Positions 2,809 to 28,235 of a DNA stretch of 64,000 bases are shown here, piece after piece. The notes beneath the pieces were generated by a model that saw nothing but the letters and a program-made list of their open reading frames with translations, did no database searches and had not been told where the DNA came from. The stretch comes from a bacterium. GTDB taxonomy: Bacteria > Patescibacteriota > Minisyncoccia > Minisyncoccales > UBA10102. Both the position numbers and the translations under genes were made by a program. The first letter of the stretch is position 1, and each line of letters starts with the position of its first letter. Location of the stretch: assembly GCA_030647485.1 (NCBI GenBank), contig JAUSJT010000003.1, positions 9,092 to 73,091 on the forward strand. Reading direction: 5' to 3'.

Positions 2809-4559
2809 GGGTTGAAGACCAACAATTAATGGCGTTTCTGCTGGATGCGGGGCTCGTGGGCATGCAGGAATTGCGGGACGCAGAGAAAAAATCCAAGAAG
2901 CTGCAAAAGCGCTTGGCAGATGTGCTGGTTGCAGATAATCTCTTATCCCAAGAAGAGCTTATTAAAATGGAGGCGTACATTCTGGGCATTCCGTTTGTCA
3001 ATCTGGAAAAAGAGACCCTAGATCCCGAAGTGTTAAAAATAGTCCCAGAGCCGATTGCCAGGTCTCACAATATTGTGGCATTCCGGAAAAAGGGCCAGGA
3101 TTTGGAAGTTGCCATGCTGGATCCAGAAGACCTTGCCACCATCGATTTTATAAAAAAGAAGTCAGATTTAAAAATTCTCCCCCGGCTTACTACTCCTGCA
3201 AGTATGACTCAGGTGCTGCGTCAGTACTCCAAGACCCTGGAGGCAGAATTCGGAGACATTATCCAACAAGAGGTGGGAGGAATAAAGACTCGAAAGGAAA
3301 GCGACGGAACAGAAAAGAATGCGAAAGAAGAGCTTGAAAAGGCCGCAGAAGAGCTTCCTATCATACGAATAGTAGATACCCTGCTCAAGCACGCAATTCT
3401 GCAGCGTTCGTCCGATATTCACATTGAGCCCACGGAAAAAGAAGTGATTGTGCGCTATCGTATTGACGGAGTGCTCCGTGACGCTATGGTTCTTCCCAGG
3501 GCCGCTACCTCTGGTATTGTTGCAAGGATTAAGGTACTTTCAAATTTACAGCTTGATGAGCACCGCCTGCCTCAAGATGGGCGCTTTAAGGTAGAAACAG
3601 ATGAGTATAAATATTCTATCAGGGTTTCTATACTCCCCGTGTTTGACGGAGAAAAGATCGTTATGCGCTTGCTGGCTGAAACCGCAAAGGCGTTTACCCT
3701 AGAACAGATAGGGTTGCGGGGAGAGGCGCTAGAAGACGTGCAACGAGCATTGAAAAAACCAGTTGGCATGCTCTTGGTCACGGGTCCTACGGGGTCTGGG
3801 AAAACCACAACCTTGTATGCCATGATGGAGATACTTTCCACTCCCCAGGTGAATATCTCTACCGTAGAAGATCCCATAGAGTACCGCATGCCCAGGGTGA
3901 ACCAGACTCAGGTGAATCCTAAAATAGGGTTTACCTTTGCAACGGGATTGCGCTCTTTGGTGAGGCAGGACCCAGACATCCTTATGGTAGGAGAGATTCG
4001 AGACGAGGAAACCGCTTCCCTGGCTATAAACGCTGCTTTGACGGGACATCTTGTGCTTTCCACTTTGCATACCAATAGCGCGGCTGGCGCCATACCCCGC
4101 TTGATTGATATGGGAGCCGAACCGTTTCTCATTTCCTCAACGTTGAATGTCATAGTTGCCCAGCGTCTGATACGCCGTCTCTCTGAAGAAAAAGGTGCGT
4201 ATAATCTTTCTGACAAAGAAATCGCAGACCTCTCTTCATACTGCAACGTAGAGAAGGTCACAAGCATTCTGAAAGATGAGAAGCTCTTAAAGCCAAAACA
4301 AAACCTTGGAGATATTTCTTTCTGGCGGCCGAAAGCCACCAAGGAAAATCCTGACGGGTATAAGGGAAGGATGGGAATTTACGAAGTGCTGCCCGTGACA
4401 GAAACGATCAAGAACCTCATCATCCAGCGCACGGACGCAGACGCAATCGGAGAGCAAGCGCAGAAAGAAGGCATGAGAACCATGGTGGAAGACGGATTTA
4501 TAAAAGCTGCCCAAGGCATTACTTCCATTGAAGAGGTGCTCCGCGTCATCACTGAATGA
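2805..4559 (+). CDS. pilB: Type IV pilus assembly ATPase PilB/GspE (locus 1)
   Basis: Walker A GPTGSGKTTT, Asp box, His box, N-terminal GspII domain. Confidence 0.9.
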   Translation: MRVEDQQLMAFLLDAGLVGMQELRDAEKKSKKLQKRLADVLVADNLLSQEELIKMEAYILGIPFVNLEKETLDPEVLKIVPEPIARSHNIVAFRKKGQDLEVAMLDPEDLATIDFIKKKSDLKILPRLTTPASMTQVLRQYSKTLEAEFGDIIQQEVGGIKTRKESDGTEKNAKEELEKAAEELPIIRIVDTLLKHAILQRSSDIHIEPTEKEVIVRYRIDGVLRDAMVLPRAATSGIVARIKVLSNLQLDEHRLPQDGRFKVETDEYKYSIRVSILPVFDGEKIVMRLLAETAKAFTLEQIGLRGEALEDVQRALKKPVGMLLVTGPTGSGKTTTLYAMMEILSTPQVNISTVEDPIEYRMPRVNQTQVNPKIGFTFATGLRSLVRQDPDILMVGEIRDEETASLAINAALTGHLVLSTLHTNSAAGAIPRLIDMGAEPFLISSTLNVIVAQRLIRRLSEEKGAYNLSDKEIADLSSYCNVEKVTSILKDEKLLKPKQNLGDISFWRPKATKENPDGYKGRMGIYEVLPVTETIKNLIIQRTDADAIGEQAQKEGMRTMVEDGFIKAAQGITSIEEVLRVITE

Positions 4560-4603
4560 CGCGAAATCCGAAGCACGAAGCACGAAATCCGAAACAAATT
4601 CAA

Positions 4604-5935
4604 ATGGCTGAAATTCAAATCTCTCAAATAAATACGAGAATCAATCAGTCAAGAGTTCTTTATTTTGAGAGTAATATTATTGCATTGTTTAATGGTATTA
4701 AGGTTGATCCCTCATGGTCTTTTTCTGATAAAACAAGAAAAGACACGGCGTACATTACTCATGGTTATCATCGATACCCTGCAAAGTTTATTCCTCAAAT
4801 CGTTTCCCGCTTAGCTGATAAATATACAAGCGAGGGCGATTTAATTGTTGATCCATTCGGTGGGTGCGGGACAACACTTGTTGAATCAAAAGTAATGGGG
4901 CGGTTATCAGTGGGCGTTGATATAAACCCCGTTGCTGTGCTTATCACAAAAGCTAAAATTACGCCGCTTGACCCAGCAAAAATTGAAGAAGTATTTACAG
5001 CACTGGAAGAGAAATTAGGCAGTTATAGTAAGAATACAAAAGTGAAAGCTCCAGAACACGAACGGATTGATTATTGGTTTAAGCAGGAAGAAAAGAGGAA
5101 ACTTGCTTTCATCTTTGCCGAGATTTCAAAAATAAAAGATCGGGATGTGAAAGATTTCCTTTATTGCGGGTTTTCAAACATTCTAAAAAATTGCTCTATT
5201 TGGCTGCAGAAAAGCAACAAACCAACAAGGGATTTTGCGAAAAAGCCGTCTGACCCGATACCAACATTTTTCAGACAAGTAAAAATGATGATGAGGGGCA
5301 ACGCAAGATTTTATGAGTTGTTAAAGCAGAAAAATCACCTTGAAGTGCCAAGCCAAGTTTACTGTACCGACGCAAGGACGATTCCTGTCAAAAATAATTC
5401 TGTTAGCTTAATTGTTACTTCGCCGCCATATGTTACTTCCTACGAATACGCCGATTTGCACCAGCTCACCGCTCTGTGGTTAGAATACACAAAAGATTTA
5501 AGTGATTTTCGCAAGCGTTTTATTGGTACTTCTTATCACAACAAAAAAGATTTGACTCTCAATAGCACACTCGCAGAAAATATCAGAAAATACTTGCTAG
5601 AAAAGGACAAGAAAACCGCCGAGGAGGTTTCTACATATTTTAGCGAGATGAACCAAGTATTTATTGAAATGAAAAGAATGCTAAAAAAAGGTGGTAAAAC
5701 TTGTATTGTTATCGGTAATACGAGCCTGAAAGGCGTTGAGATACTCAATGCGGAAGTTTTTGCTGAACAATTGCAAAACTTGGGGTTAAAGATCGCCGAT
5801 ATTGTTAAAAGAGAAATACCATCAAAAAATTTACCGTCTGTTAGAGATGAAAAAACTGGCAAGTTTGCAAGTATAACCGACAAAAACAGAGTTTCTGCTT
5901 ATCCGACAGAATATATTTTAGTAATGGAAAAATAA
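4604..5935 (+). CDS. DNA methyltransferase (N6-adenine or N4-cytosine, alpha-like motif order). The ORF could start at 4556.
   Basis: Motif I DPFGGCGTT and motif IV TSPPY. The 4556-4603 extension is coded by the flanking repeat and looks non-native. Confidence 0.8.
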   Translation: MAEIQISQINTRINQSRVLYFESNIIALFNGIKVDPSWSFSDKTRKDTAYITHGYHRYPAKFIPQIVSRLADKYTSEGDLIVDPFGGCGTTLVESKVMGRLSVGVDINPVAVLITKAKITPLDPAKIEEVFTALEEKLGSYSKNTKVKAPEHERIDYWFKQEEKRKLAFIFAEISKIKDRDVKDFLYCGFSNILKNCSIWLQKSNKPTRDFAKKPSDPIPTFFRQVKMMMRGNARFYELLKQKNHLEVPSQVYCTDARTIPVKNNSVSLIVTSPPYVTSYEYADLHQLTALWLEYTKDLSDFRKRFIGTSYHNKKDLTLNSTLAENIRKYLLEKDKKTAEEVSTYFSEMNQVFIEMKRMLKKGGKTCIVIGNTSLKGVEILNAEVFAEQLQNLGLKIADIVKREIPSKNLPSVRDEKTGKFASITDKNRVSAYPTEYILVMEK

Positions 5936-21256: not shown

Positions 21257-21328
21257 GGCCGCGTAGTCAAGTGGTAAGACAAGGGACTGCAAATCCCTTA
21301 TACGGGAGTTCGATTCTCCCCGCGGCCT
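21257..21328 (+). tRNA. tRNA-Cys(GCA)
   Basis: Anticodon loop CTGCAAA, discriminator U. Confidence 0.85.
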
Positions 21329-21372
21329 CTAAAACTTAATGAGATTAAGTTTAACTTAGTTAAACTAAGTTT

Positions 21373-21455
21373 GCCGCGGTGATGGAAAGGTAGACATGAG
21401 GGGCTTAAAACCCCTTGCTCGAAAGGGCGTGTGGGTTCGATTCCCGCCCGCGGCA
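21373..21455 (+). tRNA. tRNA-Leu(TAA)
   Basis: Anticodon loop CTTAAAA, long variable arm. Confidence 0.85.
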
Positions 21456-21471
21456 CAACTATAGATACAAT

Positions 21472-22212
21472 ATGAAGAGGCATATCGACAAAGATTTTTT
21501 TAAGATCTGGACCGGAGAGATGAGCTATGTTCTAGGGTATATTGTTGCGGATGGCTGTATTTATAAAAGGAAAGATAGAAAGGATAGTTATATTTTAAAC
21601 ATCACATCTAAGGATCGAGACCACTTAGTGAGCATAAACAAAAGTTTACATTCTGACTACCCAATAAGCATAAAATATAATTCTCAGCGGATGCCCCATT
21701 CTCAAATCCAAATCTCCAACTTAGAGATTTGCAAAGATCTCATGAATTTGGGGATATTACCCAGAAAAACAATTCATCTAGAGCCCATTAGTGCCCCAGA
21801 TAAATACTTTTTCGATTTTGTACGTGGATTTTTTGATGGCGACGGTAGCGTTTATATCTATATAGTAAATGGAGTCTCACAAATTAAGGTAAATTTTGTC
21901 AGTACTAGCTATTCTTTTCTAGATAATTTTAATTCACATCTTTGCAGGGATCTGGGTATTTCTCAAAAATCTATACACAGATTATTACCAAAAGATGATC
22001 GAAGACTCATCAAATATTCTATTGATTTTTATATTAGTGATTGTGAAAAATTAGCAAAGTATCTCTACGAGAATGATCCAGCCCTCTATCTTACTCGTAA
22101 ACGAAGAATCTTTGAAGATTGGAAGTCAAAACCGCGTCGCCAGTATATTAAGAAAAATTATCCTTCAAAAGTTGGTTGGCATCTGAATCAACAAGTTTCT
22201 GTACTTAATTAA
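21472..22212 (+). CDS. Double-motif LAGLIDADG homing endonuclease
   Basis: LGYIVADGC and VRGFFDGDGSV motifs. Confidence 0.8.
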   Translation: MKRHIDKDFFKIWTGEMSYVLGYIVADGCIYKRKDRKDSYILNITSKDRDHLVSINKSLHSDYPISIKYNSQRMPHSQIQISNLEICKDLMNLGILPRKTIHLEPISAPDKYFFDFVRGFFDGDGSVYIYIVNGVSQIKVNFVSTSYSFLDNFNSHLCRDLGISQKSIHRLLPKDDRRLIKYSIDFYISDCEKLAKYLYENDPALYLTRKRRIFEDWKSKPRRQYIKKNYPSKVGWHLNQQVSVLN

Positions 22213-22306: not shown

Positions 22307-22795
22307 CTACCCTTCAATGACTTGGATATTGGTGTACTTTGCGCCAAAGTTTAATGCTTCAGAATAGCTGGGAAACCAAATGTCTACCACATATTTCTGC
22401 CTTGGGTGCATTCGGTCCTCTACTACAAAGATTTTGTCTCCGTATAAGTCAGGAAGCTTGATCCTGGTTCCTATAGGCAAGAAGTTTGCGGCAACCACTC
22501 CTTCTCGCACGGTAGTGCCTGAAGCTGTGATAAAGGGGCTATCGTCTGTCTGCCACGTTGTGGAAGAGTATGCTGTGACTACCACAGAAACGGTGCGCAA
22601 GACGTAGTCTGGGCCTTTGGGAGCGGCAATAGGGAGAAGGGCAGACCCTTGAGAAACCGCAAGCTCTTCAAAATCTGGAGCTTGGGTAAGGAAAGACCCT
22701 TGTTTCCCGTAGCTTTCATGGGCAAGATCAGGGAAAAGGCTGAATGTCAGTATGCCCAGGGTTAGGACAAGCAATGTTTTGTTTGGTGTTTTCAT
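22307..22795 (-). CDS. Secreted 3D-domain (MltA/RlpA-like) protein
   Basis: Signal peptide plus the three conserved Asp of the 3D domain. Confidence 0.6.
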   Translation of the reverse strand: MKTPNKTLLVLTLGILTFSLFPDLAHESYGKQGSFLTQAPDFEELAVSQGSALLPIAAPKGPDYVLRTVSVVVTAYSSTTWQTDDSPFITASGTTVREGVVAANFLPIGTRIKLPDLYGDKIFVVEDRMHPRQKYVVDIWFPSYSEALNFGAKYTNIQVIEG

Positions 22796-22995
22796 AAAAA
22801 GCCCCTTTTGAGGGCGCCTATAGTATATGCTAAAGGAGGGGAAAAGTCAAGGGGTTGCAGGCAAGGCACAATCAAGGAGTGGTATGGAGGAGGGGTACTT
22901 TTCCACAGATGGCTATTTGACAGCGTATGTTGCAGTGGTAGAATTCAATGTGCGATTGGGCTTTTTTTATTGTACAGTACTCTTGACATAGTATA

Positions 22996-23005
22996 CAATA
23001 TATTG
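22996..23005. promoter_or_regulatory. NrdR-box-like palindrome CAATATATTG in the nrdR-nrdJ promoter region
   Basis: Perfect 10-bp palindrome matching the core of the NrdR box consensus, ~15 bp upstream of nrdR. Confidence 0.4.
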
Positions 23006-23017
23006 ACTAGTTGAGGC

Positions 23018-23470
23018 ATGAAATGTCCTGTTTGTCAAAGTTCCACAAAAGTAACAAATTCAAGGGGGGCAGACCACGGAAGGGCCATTAAAAGAAGGCG
23101 CGTATGCCTGCAGTGCAAGAGACGCTTCACCTCCTATGAGCGCATTGAGCTGGTAGGGTTAACCGTGATAAAGCGCAACAGGTCAAAAGAGCCGTATCTG
23201 CGCCATAAGATAGAGTTAGGGCTTCGGAAAGCCCTAGAGAAGCGATCCGTCATAGAAGATCAGTTCCAGAAGCTTGTTTCTGCCATAGAAAATGACATTT
23301 TCAGCCTTGAAAAGGACACGGTTTCTTCCGAGCAGATAGGGCACATTGTACTTTCGCATCTCAAGGATTTTGATCAAGTTGCGTACCTTCGTTTTGCTTC
23401 CGTGCATAGGCATTTTAAGAGCGCACGGGCGTTTGAAAAAGAGATACAAAAATTAGAAAAGGCAAAATGA
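23018..23470 (+). CDS. nrdR: Transcriptional repressor NrdR
   Basis: N-terminal Zn ribbon CPVC...CLQC plus ATP-cone. Confidence 0.9.
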   Translation: MKCPVCQSSTKVTNSRGADHGRAIKRRRVCLQCKRRFTSYERIELVGLTVIKRNRSKEPYLRHKIELGLRKALEKRSVIEDQFQKLVSAIENDIFSLEKDTVSSEQIGHIVLSHLKDFDQVAYLRFASVHRHFKSARAFEKEIQKLEKAK

Positions 23471-26400
23471 TAACACTCACCAAAAAGGAGAAAGGGAGTA
23501 TCAATGGCAGATTTTCGGACAATGCGTTGCGCATGATGAAGAAGCGTTATCTCGCAGTAGACGAGAAAGGCAATCAGGAAACTCCGGCAGATATGTTCTT
23601 GCGCGTTGCAGCTTCTTTAGGTGAGGTGGAGAAAGAATACAAGAAAAGCCAAGCAGTCCAAGACAAGGTGACGCGGGATTTTTTTGACATCATGGCATCA
23701 AAAGAGTACACGCCAGCCGGCCGCACACTCACGAATTCCGGAGGGGATACTGCTTTGATTGCAAACTGCATTGTGCTTCCTATTCACGATTCCATGGAGA
23801 GCATCTTTCAGACACTGAAGGATGCTGCTTTGCTGCAGCAGGCAGGGTGCGGCTTGGGGTTTGACCTTTCTGAAATGCGGCCCGCCGACTTTGTCACCAA
23901 AAAATCACGAGGGCGGGCATCAGGTCCCGTCTCGTTTCTTAGGGTATATGACGCCGCATTCGCCACCATAAAACAGCAGGGCAGGCATGGGGCAAATATG
24001 GCCATGATGAGGGTGGATCATCCAGACGTTCTGGACTTTATTCATTCCAAGAAAAAGGAGGGAGAGATGCGAAATTTCAATATTTCCGTCACCATCACAG
24101 ACGAGTTTATGAAGGCCTTAGAGAAAACTCCCAATGCCCAGTGGATGTGCGAGTTTGGAGGTAAGAAGTATAAGCCCCACAACGTATTCCGCCATCCCAA
24201 CGGAGCTGTGTTTGGTTCGGAAGAAGTGGATATCACGGTAAAGCAGCTTTTTGACGAGCTGGTAGACTACGCGTGGTTGAACGGGGAGCCTGGCATTGCG
24301 TTTATTGATACGGTAAATAAAACTAATCCCCTGCCGGGCTTGGGCAAGATTGCGTCTTCTAACCCATGCGTGACGGGTGATACCCTTGTATCAACTAGTC
24401 ATGGCTTTCTTTCTATGGAGCGATTAGCTAAAGAATACGCTTCAGGCGGTCTTTACCTTGCCCAGGATTCTCGTACTCCTCGTGCGAGGTTTGTTCAAGT
24501 AGCAAAACTTGTTGCGGCGGGCGTATCCCAAGAAGATGTTGAGTACCAAAATATTCTTTCTTTTGAGAGGAGCGAGGAAGCGGTTCCAGGAACGCTGGTA
24601 AGGGCTTGGGAGACAGGGGTAAAGCCAGTGTATCGGCTTATTACTAATTCCGGGTATGAACTTGAGCTTACCAAAGATCACAAGGTGTTTACTCCTCAGG
24701 GGAAAACTCAACTTAAGGATCTTAAGCAAGGAGACAAGATTCTTCTTCAGTCTCAAGAAGGACTCTGGAGCAGTAAACACGAACTTTCCTTTGTTTCGCA
24801 GAATACCGTCAGAGGAAAGAATGGACATACCTACTCTTATAATTTTCCTTCTCGGTGGAGTCAGGAACTCGGTCAGGTACTTGGTTGGCTTATTGGAGAC
24901 GGCTGGATACGGGATATTCCAAAACAGTATATGGTTGGCTTTACTTTTGCACAGGAAGATAAGGAAGTTATGGAGTATCTCAAGCCAATCCTCAATGCGT
25001 GGTATAAAAACTCTGTTCGCAAGGAGATAAAGCGGGGGAACGGGGTGTATCATCTTGACTATGGCGCAAAGGAGTTTGTTCAATTTTTCAAAACACTCGG
25101 AGTAAAAGCAGTCAAGGCAGAAAACAAGGAAGTTCCTCTTGCTCTATGGACGGCTCCTCGAGAAGCGGTTACCGGTTTCCTGCAGGGTTTGTTTAGCGCC
25201 GACGGGACTATTAACATCTACGAAAAAAACCAGACGCGATACATCCGGCTTACTTCGAAATCAGAGAAGCTTTTGAAACAGACGCAAATTTTGCTTCTTA
25301 ATCTTGGTATTCGCTCCACTATTTACAATAGAAGCAGAAAGCCATCCGTGAAAATGGGGTACCAGAATGACGGTATCTGTTTTGAGTTGCAGATTGCGAG
25401 AACAAATATAGGGACATTTTTTGAAAAGATTGGATTTCTTGGCAATCACTATACACGAAAAGCAGAAACCCTCAAAGAGAAGAGATATTATGGAGAGTAT
25501 TTTGAGGACGAAGTGAAAGAAATAGAGTATGTAGGAATAAAAAAGGTGTATGATCTTACCGAGTCACTCACCCATTCTTTTATTGCTAATGGTATTGTTG
25601 TATCAAATTGCGGAGAACAATTCCTGCATGCGTATGACGAATGTAATCTAGGGTCTATTAACCTTGCAATGTTCGTGAAAGACAAGAAGATTGATTTCAA
25701 GAGACTGGGATTTGTGACGAGAACAGCAACCCGCCTCATGGACAACGTTATAGACCGCTTTGACTTCCCCGTTCCCCAGGTTACCCAAATGGCAAAGAGT
25801 AACAGAAGGATTGGTCTTGGCATTATGGGATTTGCCGACATGCTTTATCAATTGGGAGTTCAGTATAATTCCAAGGAAGGATTTGCAATGGGAGAAAGAG
25901 TCATGGGGTGTATCACAGACGAATCCCACAAAATGTCAGAAGTTCTTGCAAAAGAGAAAGGTGTGTTCCCCAATTGGAAAAAGAGCGTGTTTGCAAAAAA
26001 GAAAGTGAAGATGCGCAACGCGGCATTAACCACAGTTGCTCCCACGGGGTCTATTTCCATGATGTTTGACATTTCCTCCGGGATTGAGCCTAACTTTGCT
26101 TTAGCGTACATTAAGCAGGACAAAGACGGCCAGCAATACCGGTATCTCAACGCGCATTTTGAAAAAGCGCTGAATCAGCTGAAGATCGCAAAAGAAGAAA
26201 AGGAGAGGATTATGAAAGAGATTATAGAAAAAGGTACTATTCAGCATTTAACCACCTTGCCTCAAAAATTAAGAAATACCTTTGTGGTATCTATGGATAT
26301 CCCAGGGTTAGACCATATGGAAATGCAGGCTGCGTTCCAGCGGCACGTGGACAACTCTATTTCAAAGACCATTAACTTTGCAAACTCCGCAACAAAAGAG

Positions 26401-27102
26401 GAAATAGCCCAGAGTTTTGTGGCAGCGTGGAAGCTAGGATGCAAGAGCTGTACCGTGTATCGAGACGGAAGCAGGGTTATTCAAATACTCAATGTTGGGT
26501 CAGGAGAGAATATTATTGCTCCCACAGAGGCTCCGGTAAGAGAAGAAAAGAGAGAATTGCAGATAGCAAGCGCTGGGGGCATAGTGCCTCGCCGCAGGCC
26601 AGAGGTTATGGCAGGCAAGACCTATCGCGTGAAAACCGGCTACGGGAAACTTTACGTTACCATTAACAACGATGAAAAGGGCATGCCCTTTGAAGTATTC
26701 GCAACAATTGGGAGGAGCGGAGGGTTCTTCCAGGAGCAGTCAGAAGCAATATGCCGTTTAATGTCCCTTGCTTTGCGCGCAGGAGTAAAGGTGGAAGAAA
26801 TTTCAGACGAATTAAAAGGAATACGGGGGCCTATGCCAACCTTTACCGATAAGGGTACCATTCTTTCTCTTCCTGATGCGTTAGGGAAGATTCTAGAACA
26901 GCATGTTACCACAGCACTACAGATTGAAGATGTTATCGCTCGTCCAGAAAAACAAGAGGTGCTGCCCTTTGTCCCCAAGATAAAAGAAAAGTCTGTTGCG
27001 GACTTTGGATTTATGCCAGGATGCCCAGACTGCGGAGCGCCGCTTCTCATGCAAGAGGGATGTATTTCTTGTCAGGCGTGCGGATTCAGCAGGTGTTCTT
27101 AA
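23467..27102 (+). CDS. nrdJ: Class II (adenosylcobalamin-dependent) ribonucleotide reductase NrdJ, interrupted by an intein
   Basis: Extein motifs ...ASSNP|CGEQFL... and a C-terminal Cys cluster. 797-aa extein plus 414-aa intein. Confidence 0.85.
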   Translation: MITLTKKEKGSINGRFSDNALRMMKKRYLAVDEKGNQETPADMFLRVAASLGEVEKEYKKSQAVQDKVTRDFFDIMASKEYTPAGRTLTNSGGDTALIANCIVLPIHDSMESIFQTLKDAALLQQAGCGLGFDLSEMRPADFVTKKSRGRASGPVSFLRVYDAAFATIKQQGRHGANMAMMRVDHPDVLDFIHSKKKEGEMRNFNISVTITDEFMKALEKTPNAQWMCEFGGKKYKPHNVFRHPNGAVFGSEEVDITVKQLFDELVDYAWLNGEPGIAFIDTVNKTNPLPGLGKIASSNPCVTGDTLVSTSHGFLSMERLAKEYASGGLYLAQDSRTPRARFVQVAKLVAAGVSQEDVEYQNILSFERSEEAVPGTLVRAWETGVKPVYRLITNSGYELELTKDHKVFTPQGKTQLKDLKQGDKILLQSQEGLWSSKHELSFVSQNTVRGKNGHTYSYNFPSRWSQELGQVLGWLIGDGWIRDIPKQYMVGFTFAQEDKEVMEYLKPILNAWYKNSVRKEIKRGNGVYHLDYGAKEFVQFFKTLGVKAVKAENKEVPLALWTAPREAVTGFLQGLFSADGTINIYEKNQTRYIRLTSKSEKLLKQTQILLLNLGIRSTIYNRSRKPSVKMGYQNDGICFELQIARTNIGTFFEKIGFLGNHYTRKAETLKEKRYYGEYFEDEVKEIEYVGIKKVYDLTESLTHSFIANGIVVSNCGEQFLHAYDECNLGSINLAMFVKDKKIDFKRLGFVTRTATRLMDNVIDRFDFPVPQVTQMAKSNRRIGLGIMGFADMLYQLGVQYNSKEGFAMGERVMGCITDESHKMSEVLAKEKGVFPNWKKSVFAKKKVKMRNAALTTVAPTGSISMMFDISSGIEPNFALAYIKQDKDGQQYRYLNAHFEKALNQLKIAKEEKERIMKEIIEKGTIQHLTTLPQKLRNTFVVSMDIPGLDHMEMQAAFQRHVDNSISKTINFANSATKEEIAQSFVAAWKLGCKSCTVYRDGSRVIQILNVGSGENIIAPTEAPVREEKRELQIASAGGIVPRRRPEVMAGKTYRVKTGYGKLYVTINNDEKGMPFEVFATIGRSGGFFQEQSEAICRLMSLALRAGVKVEEISDELKGIRGPMPTFTDKGTILSLPDALGKILEQHVTTALQIEDVIARPEKQEVLPFVPKIKEKSVADFGFMPGCPDCGAPLLMQEGCISCQACGFSRCS
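24367..25608 (+). mobile_element. Intein (Hint domain + LAGLIDADG endonuclease) in NrdJ
   Basis: Begins CVTGDTLV after SSNP and ends IVVSN before C+1 of CGEQFL. Internal LGWLIGDGW and LQGLFSADGT motifs. Confidence 0.85.
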
Positions 27103-27111
27103 CCATCCTTC

Positions 27112-27654
27112 ATGGGACTCTTTTTTACTGGCAAGGGAGACAAAGGGTCTTCGCATATAGGGGGAAAAAAATATCCTAAAGATTCTCCCATTGTGGAAGC
27201 ACTGGGTGATTTAGATGAGCTGAATTCCCTGCTCGGAGTGGTAAAAACGCAAATACGAAAGCCCAGCCTTGCAAAAAAACTAGAGGACGTACAAGAGAAC
27301 CTGTTCATTATCCAGGCAAGAATTGCCTGGCTTATGTACCCAAAGTTTCCTTCTCCTCAAATGACGAAAGATAAGATTAAAGCGATGGAGCAGGAAATTG
27401 AAGCGATTGAGAAAAAAATAAAGCCAGAGCGCGGCTTTGTTATTTCAGGCTCTGATATTGTTGCGTCTTGGTTGGATATGCTTCGCGCAGTTTCAAGAAG
27501 GGTAGAAAGAAGGGTTGTGAAGCTTCATAAGACCCGCTTTTTTCCGCAAGAGATTATCACGTATCTCAACCGGCTCTCTTCATATTTGTACGCATTGGCT
27601 CGAGCAGAGGCTGCAGCAAAAAAGATTAAAGAATCTCGCCCCACCTATTTATGA
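27112..27654 (+). CDS. PduO-type ATP:cob(I)alamin adenosyltransferase
   Basis: N-terminal FTGKGDKGSSHIGG...PIVEALGDLDELNSLLG signature. Confidence 0.8.
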   Translation: MGLFFTGKGDKGSSHIGGKKYPKDSPIVEALGDLDELNSLLGVVKTQIRKPSLAKKLEDVQENLFIIQARIAWLMYPKFPSPQMTKDKIKAMEQEIEAIEKKIKPERGFVISGSDIVASWLDMLRAVSRRVERRVVKLHKTRFFPQEIITYLNRLSSYLYALARAEAAAKKIKESRPTYL

Positions 27655-28202
27655 ACACTCGTTTTCTCATCGGGTTCACATTCATTGCTTTGCTTGCTGC
27701 CGTGGCAATAAGGATTCTTCCGCATATCCCCAACTTTACTCCCCTAGGAGCTTTTGCGTTGTTTGTGGGGGTGTTTGTGGCAAGAAAACACTGGTGGGGA
27801 TTATTACTTCCTCTTTTCGCAATGTTCCTTTCTGATCTGTTTATTGGATTTTACGACTTGAAGTTAATGGCTGTGGTGTATGGAAGTTTTTTGGCGTATA
27901 CCGGCTTTGGCATGCTGGTTGCGAAAAGAAAGAGCATTGCCATGGTCTTTCTGGGAAGTATGGGGGGAGCAGTGCTATTCTATCTGACAACAAATTTTGC
28001 AGTATGGGCATTCTCTAGCTGGTATCCCCATACGGTTTCGGGCTTGCTGCTTTCTTATACGCTTGCGCTTCCTTTTTTTAAGTATACGATTCTGGGAGAT
28101 CTCTTTTTCACAAGTGTATTGTTCGGGGTATACGAGCTTGCCGCTCATCTTTTGCTTCAACGTCAGTTGAAACTTAGCCTGTCTAAGTTACAAAATAGAT
28201 AA
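27651..28202 (+). CDS. Polytopic membrane protein, possible vitamin (cobalamin) uptake component
   Basis: About six TM segments; function inferred only from the nrdJ-pduO context. Confidence 0.3.
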   Translation: MNTRFLIGFTFIALLAAVAIRILPHIPNFTPLGAFALFVGVFVARKHWWGLLLPLFAMFLSDLFIGFYDLKLMAVVYGSFLAYTGFGMLVAKRKSIAMVFLGSMGGAVLFYLTTNFAVWAFSSWYPHTVSGLLLSYTLALPFFKYTILGDLFFTSVLFGVYELAAHLLLQRQLKLSLSKLQNR

Positions 28203-28235
28203 CAAAAACCGCCGACGAGGCGGAGTTTTGTTTTA
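28203..28235 (+). terminator. Rho-independent terminator
   Basis: ccgccgacgaggcgg hairpin followed by agttttgtttt. Confidence 0.65.

Follow-up and report, generated by a model that had tools for sequence, protein, structure and literature searches.

NrdR often regulates transcription of its own gene, and a studied example is the nrdRJ operon of Streptomyces coelicolor (PMC9110341). As defined by Shahid et al., the NrdR box is a 16-bp element with highly conserved positions C4, A6, A8, T9, T11, and G13, and the published NrdR operator consists of two such boxes 15-16 bp (or 26-27 bp) apart (PMC13584703). Ribonucleotide reductases (RNRs) are also the second most common bacterial host of inteins (PMC4760082), and in class I and class II enzymes inteins are inserted most often directly N-terminal to the thiyl-radical Cys (PMC2677866). 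Both features occur at the locus described here, in which an nrdR gene preceded by an NrdR box is followed by an intein-bearing nrdJ gene. The locus lies in a 64-kb stretch of contig JAUSJT010000003.1, referred to here as the window. Its source is a groundwater bacterium of the candidate phyla radiation (CPR), Wildermuthbacteria-like (Paceibacterota); among named lineages, Candidatus Wildermuthbacteria and other Paceibacterota are closest to it.

We read the region as a four-gene operon for deoxynucleotide supply that is repressed by NrdR and whose class II RNR is split by a mobile, class-1 LAGLIDADG intein, to be spliced out posttranslationally; we put the probability of this reading at roughly 85%. 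Because the intein occupies the commonest RNR site and the operon is of the best-studied NrdR type, the finding, though correct in our view, is an ordinary one. Both main features (nrdRJ with an NrdR box and an RNR intein) belong to well-described kinds, and the locus leaves the current understanding of NrdR or of inteins unchanged. What it adds are a few modest leads, open to testing, on how Patescibacteria regulate RNR and are supplied with B12, namely, a clade-wide degenerate box 1, a DnaA-like box, and the linkage of nrdJ to pduO and a DUF6580 gene.

Compared with S. coelicolor nrdRJ (PMC9110341; PMC13584703), the locus has the same arrangement of nrdR as the first gene before a class II RNR; cotranscription is documented in S. 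coelicolor and inferred here. Both systems have a 16-bp, partially palindromic box with six critical positions in the promoter region, as well as a repressor that combines a Zn ribbon with an ATP-cone, and in both autoregulation is implied. The operators differ: in the published one, 15-16 bp separate two boxes, whereas the window has one full predicted box and a conserved half-site with a 17-bp linker. In the window, the operon runs on into pduO and the DUF6580 gene.

By analogy with the S. coelicolor and E. coli proteins, NrdR would bind the box upstream of nrdR at high dATP and, once bound, would repress the whole operon, nrdR included. PduO would make the adenosylcobalamin (AdoCbl) cofactor for NrdJ. 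After translation, the intein would excise via Cys1, the block B TxxH motif, the terminal Asn, and Cys+1, so that NP is joined to CGE; until then, the active-site loop of NrdJ would stay split. The endonuclease domain would carry the intein into empty nrdJ alleles, and spread driven in this way would leave the closest relatives empty while a more distant one holds a nearly identical copy.

An intein at the active-site cysteine of NrdJ

The 1211-aa open reading frame (ORF) that follows nrdR gives a Pfam match to the Ribonuc_red_lgC barrel over residues 100-998, with a TSCPD domain after it. Nested inside the barrel match are Intein_splicing (E 2e-13) and LAGLIDADG_3 (E 6e-23). With the NrdJ equivalog model TIGR02504 (NrdJ_Z), the exteins reach 610 bits against a cutoff of 400, and the C-extein holds both the TSCPD domain and a C-terminal Cys-rich tail (CPDC...CISCQAC). 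The intein is an in-frame insertion between Pro300 and the thiyl-radical Cys of NPCGE, with junctions ...IASSNP/CVTGDTLV... and ...GIVVSN/CGEQFL... (slashes mark the splice sites). Removal of the intein leaves a 797-aa NrdJ that aligns to Thermotoga maritima NrdJ (Protein Data Bank [PDB] entry 1xje; E 6e-106) and is gapless across NPCGE (INSTNPCGEIGL aligned with IASSNPCGEQFL). No interruption is seen at this codon boundary in ten intein-free orthologs, whose identity to the extein segments is 62-77%. In the closest relatives, represented by loci L066, L067, and L072, NrdJ is exactly 797 aa long, 86-91% identical, and carries the identical junction peptide GLGKIASSNPCGEQFLHAYD; the empty-site nrdJ sequence of L072 reads GCGTCTTCTAACCCG/TGCGGAGAACAATTT.

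The original prediction, made without database searches, had placed a 414-aa intein with Hint blocks and LAGLIDADG motifs at 24367-25608, directly before the Cys of CGEQFL, which would serve as the +1 nucleophile. These coordinates are exact, the Pfam matches, motifs, and fold agree, and the C-terminal junction lies where proposed. The accompanying expectation that the exteins form one contiguous NrdJ held against both the T. maritima protein and the intein-free orthologs. Family assignment places NrdJ among class II RNRs, and this assignment together with the adjacent pduO points to AdoCbl as its probable cofactor. According to Pfam, NrdJ is without an ATP-cone, so that dATP/ATP sensing in the operon presumably falls to NrdR.

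In GenBank, the ORF (MDO8474171.1) is named "LAGLIDADG family homing endonuclease," and one could suppose that it encodes just such an endonuclease, or that the insertion has turned nrdJ into a pseudogene. Either is extremely improbable, given that the frame is intact over all 1211 aa, that every splice-site residue is present, and that the exteins score so far above the cutoff of the NrdJ model. The downstream cofactor genes are also retained, and no other RNR gene was encountered in the parts of the window that were examined, albeit not in a systematic search. As the GenBank label mentions only the endonuclease, metabolic reconstructions of this metagenome-assembled genome (MAG) would miss the reductase, which may be the only one that the MAG encodes.

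The intein has the sequence blocks of a Hint domain and two LAGLIDADG motifs (Table 1). Residues T102 and H105 of block B and the acidic residues D178 and D279 of the LAGLIDADG motifs are each at least 90% conserved among 25 members of the intein family. A PDB sequence search with the intein returned weak matches only, including DnaB mini-inteins, PI-PkoII, and V-ATPase inteins, and a fold search was therefore needed. For this we used an AlphaFold2 (AF2) model built on the family alignment (mean predicted local distance difference test score [pLDDT], 90.8; predicted template modeling score, 0.89). Its best PDB fold matches are homing-endonuclease (HE) inteins with the same bipartite combination of Hint and double-LAGLIDADG folds: TliVMA and PhoVMA (7qsu, 7qss, and 7qst), PI-PfuI (1dq3), PI-PkoII (2cw7), and PI-SceI. 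Foldseek E values lie between 4e-24 and 1e-12, sequence identity is only 10-19%, and hosts or insertion sites differ; PI-PfuI is an RNR intein of Pyrococcus furiosus. The endonuclease domain alone matches I-DmoI. The element is a class-1 intein with a LAGLIDADG homing-endonuclease domain, for which both splicing and site-specific DNA cleavage are predicted; indirect support for these activities comes from the low dN/dS, the polymorphic presence, and an age below that of the host gene (see below).

Among described elements, the contiguous RNR inteins (PMC2677866) are the closest in kind, sharing the NP/C...N/CGE site, the Cys1/Cys+1 chemistry, and an embedded LAGLIDADG endonuclease. In sequence the intein in the window stands apart, since fragments of a single other MAG alone reach 85-89% identity to it. 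NrdJ-1, a split intein known from metagenomes (PMC2677866), likewise interrupts the active-site loop of a class II RNR; it differs in being split, in having a free-standing endonuclease gene, and in occupying a site one residue further C-terminal.

Intein distribution and probable mobility

More than 50 database NrdJ fragments show NP/CVTGDT... and/or ...N/CGE at this site, and they come from CPR bacteria, Omnitrophica, Chloroflexi, DPANN, and other archaea. Relatives of the intein itself, with 26-50% aligned identity, are found in NrdJ of Omnitrophica, Levybacteria, Aenigmarchaeota, Nitrosopumilus, and others. Closer to the window, the intein is absent from L066, L067, and L072 and present in GCA_030698465.1 (L001/L003) and in L004, with L001/L003 representing a more distant relative than the three empty-site loci. 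Between the window and L001/L003, the intein is 83% identical at the nucleotide level and 85-89% at the amino acid level, with 0.88-0.99 synonymous substitutions per site (dS) and a ratio of nonsynonymous to synonymous substitutions (dN/dS) of 0.07-0.09. The flanking exteins are only 69-70% (nucleotide) and 75% (amino acid) identical, with dS saturated and dN/dS not computable. The intein is under purifying selection. Since it is more alike than the exteins around it, it must be younger than the divergence of the hosts, a pattern that indicates recent spread by horizontal homing. The locus would then illustrate cleanly how an intein homes in nature among CPR bacteria, with the closest relative empty and a more distant one holding a near-identical intein. 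Our literature search found no paper joining inteins, the candidate phyla radiation, and RNR.

Alternatively, the intein could be a fixed, nonmobile relic that has kept splicing and lost endonuclease activity. Decayed endonucleases are common in HE-inteins, sequence cannot reveal activity, and the related copy in L004 has an in-frame TGA in its HE domain, near the contig end. Even so, we regard a relic as unlikely: the catalytic Asp is kept in both LAGLIDADG motifs and conserved across the family, dN/dS is low, presence is polymorphic among close relatives, and identity to the more distant host is higher in the intein than in the exteins.

A different possibility concerns the timing of splicing. 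A reversible disulfide between Cys1 and Cys+1 could delay maturation of the reductase under oxidizing conditions and make the intein a posttranslational switch. The two residues flank the junction, Cys+1 is the thiyl-radical Cys, and redox-trapped inteins have been described in other proteins. The title of one report describes a DnaB intein that acts as a sensor of oxidative stress (PMC6195587). The absence of the intein from the closest relatives means, however, that this lineage can do without it for regulation; we give conditional splicing a slim chance.

Two further observations on related inteins were made. The in-frame TGA of L004 falls at about 91-93, giving RYIRLS(stop)KSE where the window has RYIRLTSKSE, and the contigs of L001, L002, L003, and L004 end such that three independent assemblies break inside this intein. 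Together, the breaks and the TGA suggest either strain-level heterogeneity in intein presence or assembly error. In L005 (4351-5583) and L006 (7031-8026), nrdJ is interrupted elsewhere, following residue 171 of the N-extein, by a different intein that is only 22-24% identical to the one in the window.

NrdR and its probable operator

NrdR has the expected two-domain architecture. Its N-terminal Zn ribbon (two CxxC pairs, C3/C6 and C30/C33, with the basic motif KRRR at residues 25-28) matches Pfam Zn_ribbon_NrdR at E 6e-16, its ATP-cone domain gives a Pfam E value of 1e-17, and the protein passes the NCBIfam equivalog TIGR00244 with 147.3 bits against a cutoff of 124.65.

The window has a single copy of the perfect palindrome CAATATATTG, against ∼0.1 exact matches per 64 kb expected from a base-composition model. 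That it forms the core of an NrdR box, as originally proposed, is corroborated by the surrounding 16-mer and by its conservation in relatives. The distance needed correction, as the palindrome does lie upstream of nrdR but ends 12 nt before the ATG rather than ∼15 bp. The 16-mer ATACAATATATTGACT ends 9 nt upstream of the ATG and has all six critical positions (C4, A6, A8, T9, T11, and G13; criteria of PMC13584703). It is the sole match in the window to the consensus ACACWATATATWGTGT at ≤3 mismatches, with 0.4 expected; this count alone is not significant, and the argument consequently rests on the position of the box and its conservation. A box of the form ATAC(A/T)AtATATTGAy is found upstream of nrdR in all 14 related GTDB promoters and in four closer metagenome loci. 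These boxes mostly end 9-10 nt from the nrdR ATG (range, 7-45; the box of L008 abuts the mapped start), 11 of the 14 promoters retain the six critical positions, and the spacers around the box vary. NrdR probably binds the full box in the window. Because the operon begins with nrdR, such an operator would also control nrdR itself; the box and the nrdR-first order of the predicted autoregulated operon are in place, and autoregulation is implied, in agreement with S. coelicolor nrdRJ and with the frequent control by NrdR of its own gene (PMC9110341).

Several observations weigh against the reading of the region as an NrdR-repressed operon with a splicing intein. Within the intein, the penultimate residue is Ser413 rather than the usual His of block G; as many same-site inteins also end in SN and Ser is common to a subset of allelic RNR inteins, we take it to be a tolerated variant and no ground for exclusion. 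For the operator, no canonical second NrdR box was found at linkers of 13-19 bp, where the best upstream 16-mer scores 3/6, equal to the background median, and inspection by eye revealed nothing convincing at 26-27 bp or downstream. An isolated single box is not bound in vitro by E. coli NrdR (PMC13584703). Moreover, the box overlaps a possible -10 element, TACAAT, so part of its conservation could reflect promoter function.

Near the place where a second box had been anticipated, ∼31 bp away, the window has only the half-site TTGTAC, separated from the full box by a 17-bp linker (33 bp center to center) and part of a 16-mer at background level. The half-site is nevertheless conserved: in 13 of 13 clade members, (T/C)(T/A)GTA(C/T/G), with GTA invariant, lies 16-18 nt upstream of the full box, and L072 carries TTGCAT at this position. 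In the more distant Patescibacteria L017 and L018, there are two good boxes, scoring 5/6 and 6/6 with a 16-bp linker and 6/6 and 6/6 with a 17-bp linker, respectively. We read the conserved half-site TTGTAY as a decayed box 1; TTGTAC could equally be a -35-like element for the TACAAT -10. Another candidate for the second box, CAATgtgcgATTG at 22946-22958, was rejected because its C-G spacing is wrong.

Taken to its end, the promoter interpretation would make the palindrome merely a promoter element (TTGTAC as -35, TACAAT as -10, and a spacing of 17-18 nt) and no NrdR operator at all. A promoter scan does return TGTACA-17-TACAAT at 22971-22999, with 9/12 consensus positions, and the missing canonical second box fits such a view, two boxes being needed in vitro (PMC13584703). 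We nonetheless judge it very unlikely. The entire 16-mer is conserved, including C4, G13, and the right half ATTGAC, none of which a -10 would need; the sole match in 64 kb lies directly upstream of nrdR; and L017 and L018 have their two good boxes at this same place. NrdR boxes normally overlap promoters (PMC9110341), so the two roles are compatible.

If the box is an NrdR operator, as we favor, it may consist of one full box and a half-box with a 17-bp linker, which would imply a binding mode unlike the two-box tetramer model. A broader proposal, that the clade as a whole has a noncanonical RNR control region (a half-box operator and a DnaA box) along with a new cofactor-uptake protein, is put forward tentatively, as possible but on balance doubtful; the evidence for its other components follows.

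A DnaA-box-like motif upstream of the predicted promoter

Upstream of the NrdR box lies the predicted sigma-70 promoter P1 (Table 1), and the pattern TTGACA-N16/17-TGaTAAAAT is conserved in the nrdR promoters of relatives. A DnaA-box-like 9-mer precedes it. Among 15 related nrdR promoters, 9 have TT(A/T)TCCACA with its first base 17-20 nt ahead of the TTGACA -35, and in 6 of these 9 the motif is the perfect DnaA-box consensus TTATCCACA. The motif is found at the same offset in L005, L006, L009-L013, L016, L068, and L072; L066 and L067 carry the one-mismatch form TTCTCCACA; and L017 and L018 match TT(A/T)TCCACA at other positions. A relaxed form of the motif is at chance level in the window (5 matches versus 5.5 expected), and the evidence therefore lies in its positional conservation. 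The motif was also considered as a remnant NrdR half-box. The idea is prompted by L018, where motif and box 1 overlap, and was rejected for the Wildermuthbacteria clade, in which 16-mers beginning at the motif score poorly and the 9-mer is exactly TTATCCACA.

In E. coli, DnaA is known to control RNR promoters, and the same has been suggested for Bacillus subtilis and Caulobacter (PMC8203912). The E. coli nrdAB promoter, which is under the control of both DnaA boxes and NrdR boxes (PMC8203912; PMC13584703), resembles that of the window, where a DnaA-box-like 9-mer lies upstream of the -35 and a probable NrdR operator downstream. The two differ in RNR class and phylum, and DnaA binding in the window is suggested by motif conservation. 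The NrdR operator here may be combined with a DnaA box that is conserved ahead of the -35, so that DnaA could influence RNR expression much as it does at E. coli nrdAB.

Downstream of this region, the only Shine-Dalgarno-like sequence before nrdR is a GAGG 2 nt from the ATG (23012-23020), and relatives are similar. Translation of nrdR may start in an atypical way or, on a transcript from a proximal promoter, without a leader.

PduO and the DUF6580 protein

Two further genes of the operon lie downstream of nrdJ. PduO matches Pfam Cob_adeno_trans (E 4e-42), passes the cutoff of TIGR00636, and is syntenic in relatives. The last gene encodes a protein matching Pfam DUF6580 (E 7e-45), and its position as last gene after nrdJ is kept in all of about a dozen Paceibacterota loci (L003, L004, L005-L014, and L066-L072). 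It follows pduO in most of them; L009 and L013 are without a PduO match. The AF2 model of the DUF6580 protein is an all-helical membrane protein (pLDDT, 95.9) whose nearest folds are S components of energy-coupling factor (ECF) transporters (4huq_S, RibU, PanT, FolT, and ThiT). The similarity is weak (template modeling score of about 0.6; Foldseek E 0.57, probability 0.95). On the strength of the S-component-like fold and the synteny, the protein is a candidate for cobalamin uptake. DUF6580 may represent a previously unrecognized S-component-like cobalamin importer that feeds the B12-dependent reductase in hosts presumably unable to make B12. We found no paper mentioning DUF6580.

Layout and neighborhood of the proposed operon

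Coordinates of all features are collected in Table 1. The proteins of the locus are present in GenBank as exact matches (MDO8474170.1 to MDO8474173.1). There is a 4-bp overlap (ATGA) between nrdR and nrdJ and another 4-bp overlap between pduO and the DUF6580 gene, and about a dozen Paceibacterota loci keep the order nrdR-nrdJ-pduO-DUF6580. When the entire window was scanned with Rfam at gathering thresholds, only tRNAs matched, with no cobalamin riboswitch or other leader RNA.

TABLE 1 Features of the nrdR-nrdJ locus and its upstream neighborhood, in window coordinates
Feature	Position	Strand	Description
tRNA-Cys	21257-21329		Near the free-standing LAGLIDADG ORF
tRNA-Leu(taa)	21373-21456		Overlapped by the LAGLIDADG ORF
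Free-standing LAGLIDADG ORF	21415-22212	+	Double motif
Gene for 162-aa protein	22307-22795	-	Secreted-looking; divergent from nrdR
DnaA-box-like 9-mer TTTTCCACA	22899-22907	+	Matches TTWTNCACA; 9 nt upstream of -35
Predicted sigma-70 promoter P1	22917-22944	+	TTGACA, 16 nt, TGgTAGAAT (extended -10); 11/12 consensus positions with TG
Degenerate "box 1" position	22960-22975	+	3/6; right half TTGTAC (22970-22975) alone conserved
NrdR box ATACAATATATTGACT	22993-23008	+	16 bp, core CAATATATTG; 6/6 critical positions
Palindrome CAATATATTG	22996-23005		Core of the NrdR box
nrdR	23018-23470	+	150 aa; Pfam, NCBIfam; GenBank MDO8474170.1 annotated NrdR
nrdJ ORF, intein included	23467-27102	+	1211 aa
nrdJ N-extein	23467-24366	+	Residues 1-300, ending ...SSNP
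Intein in nrdJ	24367-25608	+	414 aa, residues 301-714 of the 1211-aa ORF
Intein Cys1	24367-24369
Intein block B	24670-24681		TKDH (T102-K-D-H105)
LAGLIDADG motif 1	24868-24909		LGWLIGD178G; acidic residue D178 kept
LAGLIDADG motif 2	25168-25212		LQGLFSAD279G; acidic residue D279 kept
Intein blocks F/G	25546-25608		VYDLTESLTHSFIANGIVVSN; terminal Asn414, then Cys+1
nrdJ C-extein	25609-27102	+	Begins at the Cys of NPCGEQFL, the +1 nucleophile
pduO	27112-27654	+	PduO-type cob(I)alamin adenosyltransferase; Pfam, NCBIfam
DUF6580 membrane protein gene	27651-28202	+	Pfam; candidate cobalamin uptake component
Terminator-like hairpin CCGCCGACGAGGCGG with T-rich tail	28209-28233	+	Hairpin at 28209-28223; likely operon end

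One related locus departs from this layout. In L001 (GCA_030698465.1), two extra ORFs of 124 aa and 323 aa, at 3806-5153, stand between nrdR and the intein-bearing nrdJ; they have weak Pfam hints only, and the nrdR/nrdJ overlap seen elsewhere is broken there.

Upstream of nrdR, a free-standing LAGLIDADG ORF sits immediately 3' of, and overlaps, the tRNA-Leu(taa) gene. It is 24% identical to the endonuclease domain of the intein, and the description of the intein as a second class of LAGLIDADG element in the window was a fair one. Searching the window by tblastn with both LAGLIDADG proteins returned self matches only. The neighboring 162-aa protein, which has no Pfam or NCBIfam match, is encoded divergently from nrdR in nearly all relatives, at 44-69% identity. 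The interval from rbfA to the gene for this protein holds other cargo in relatives, where L066 has an HNH ORF and L072 an MscS channel gene, and for this reason looks like a variable insertion spot.

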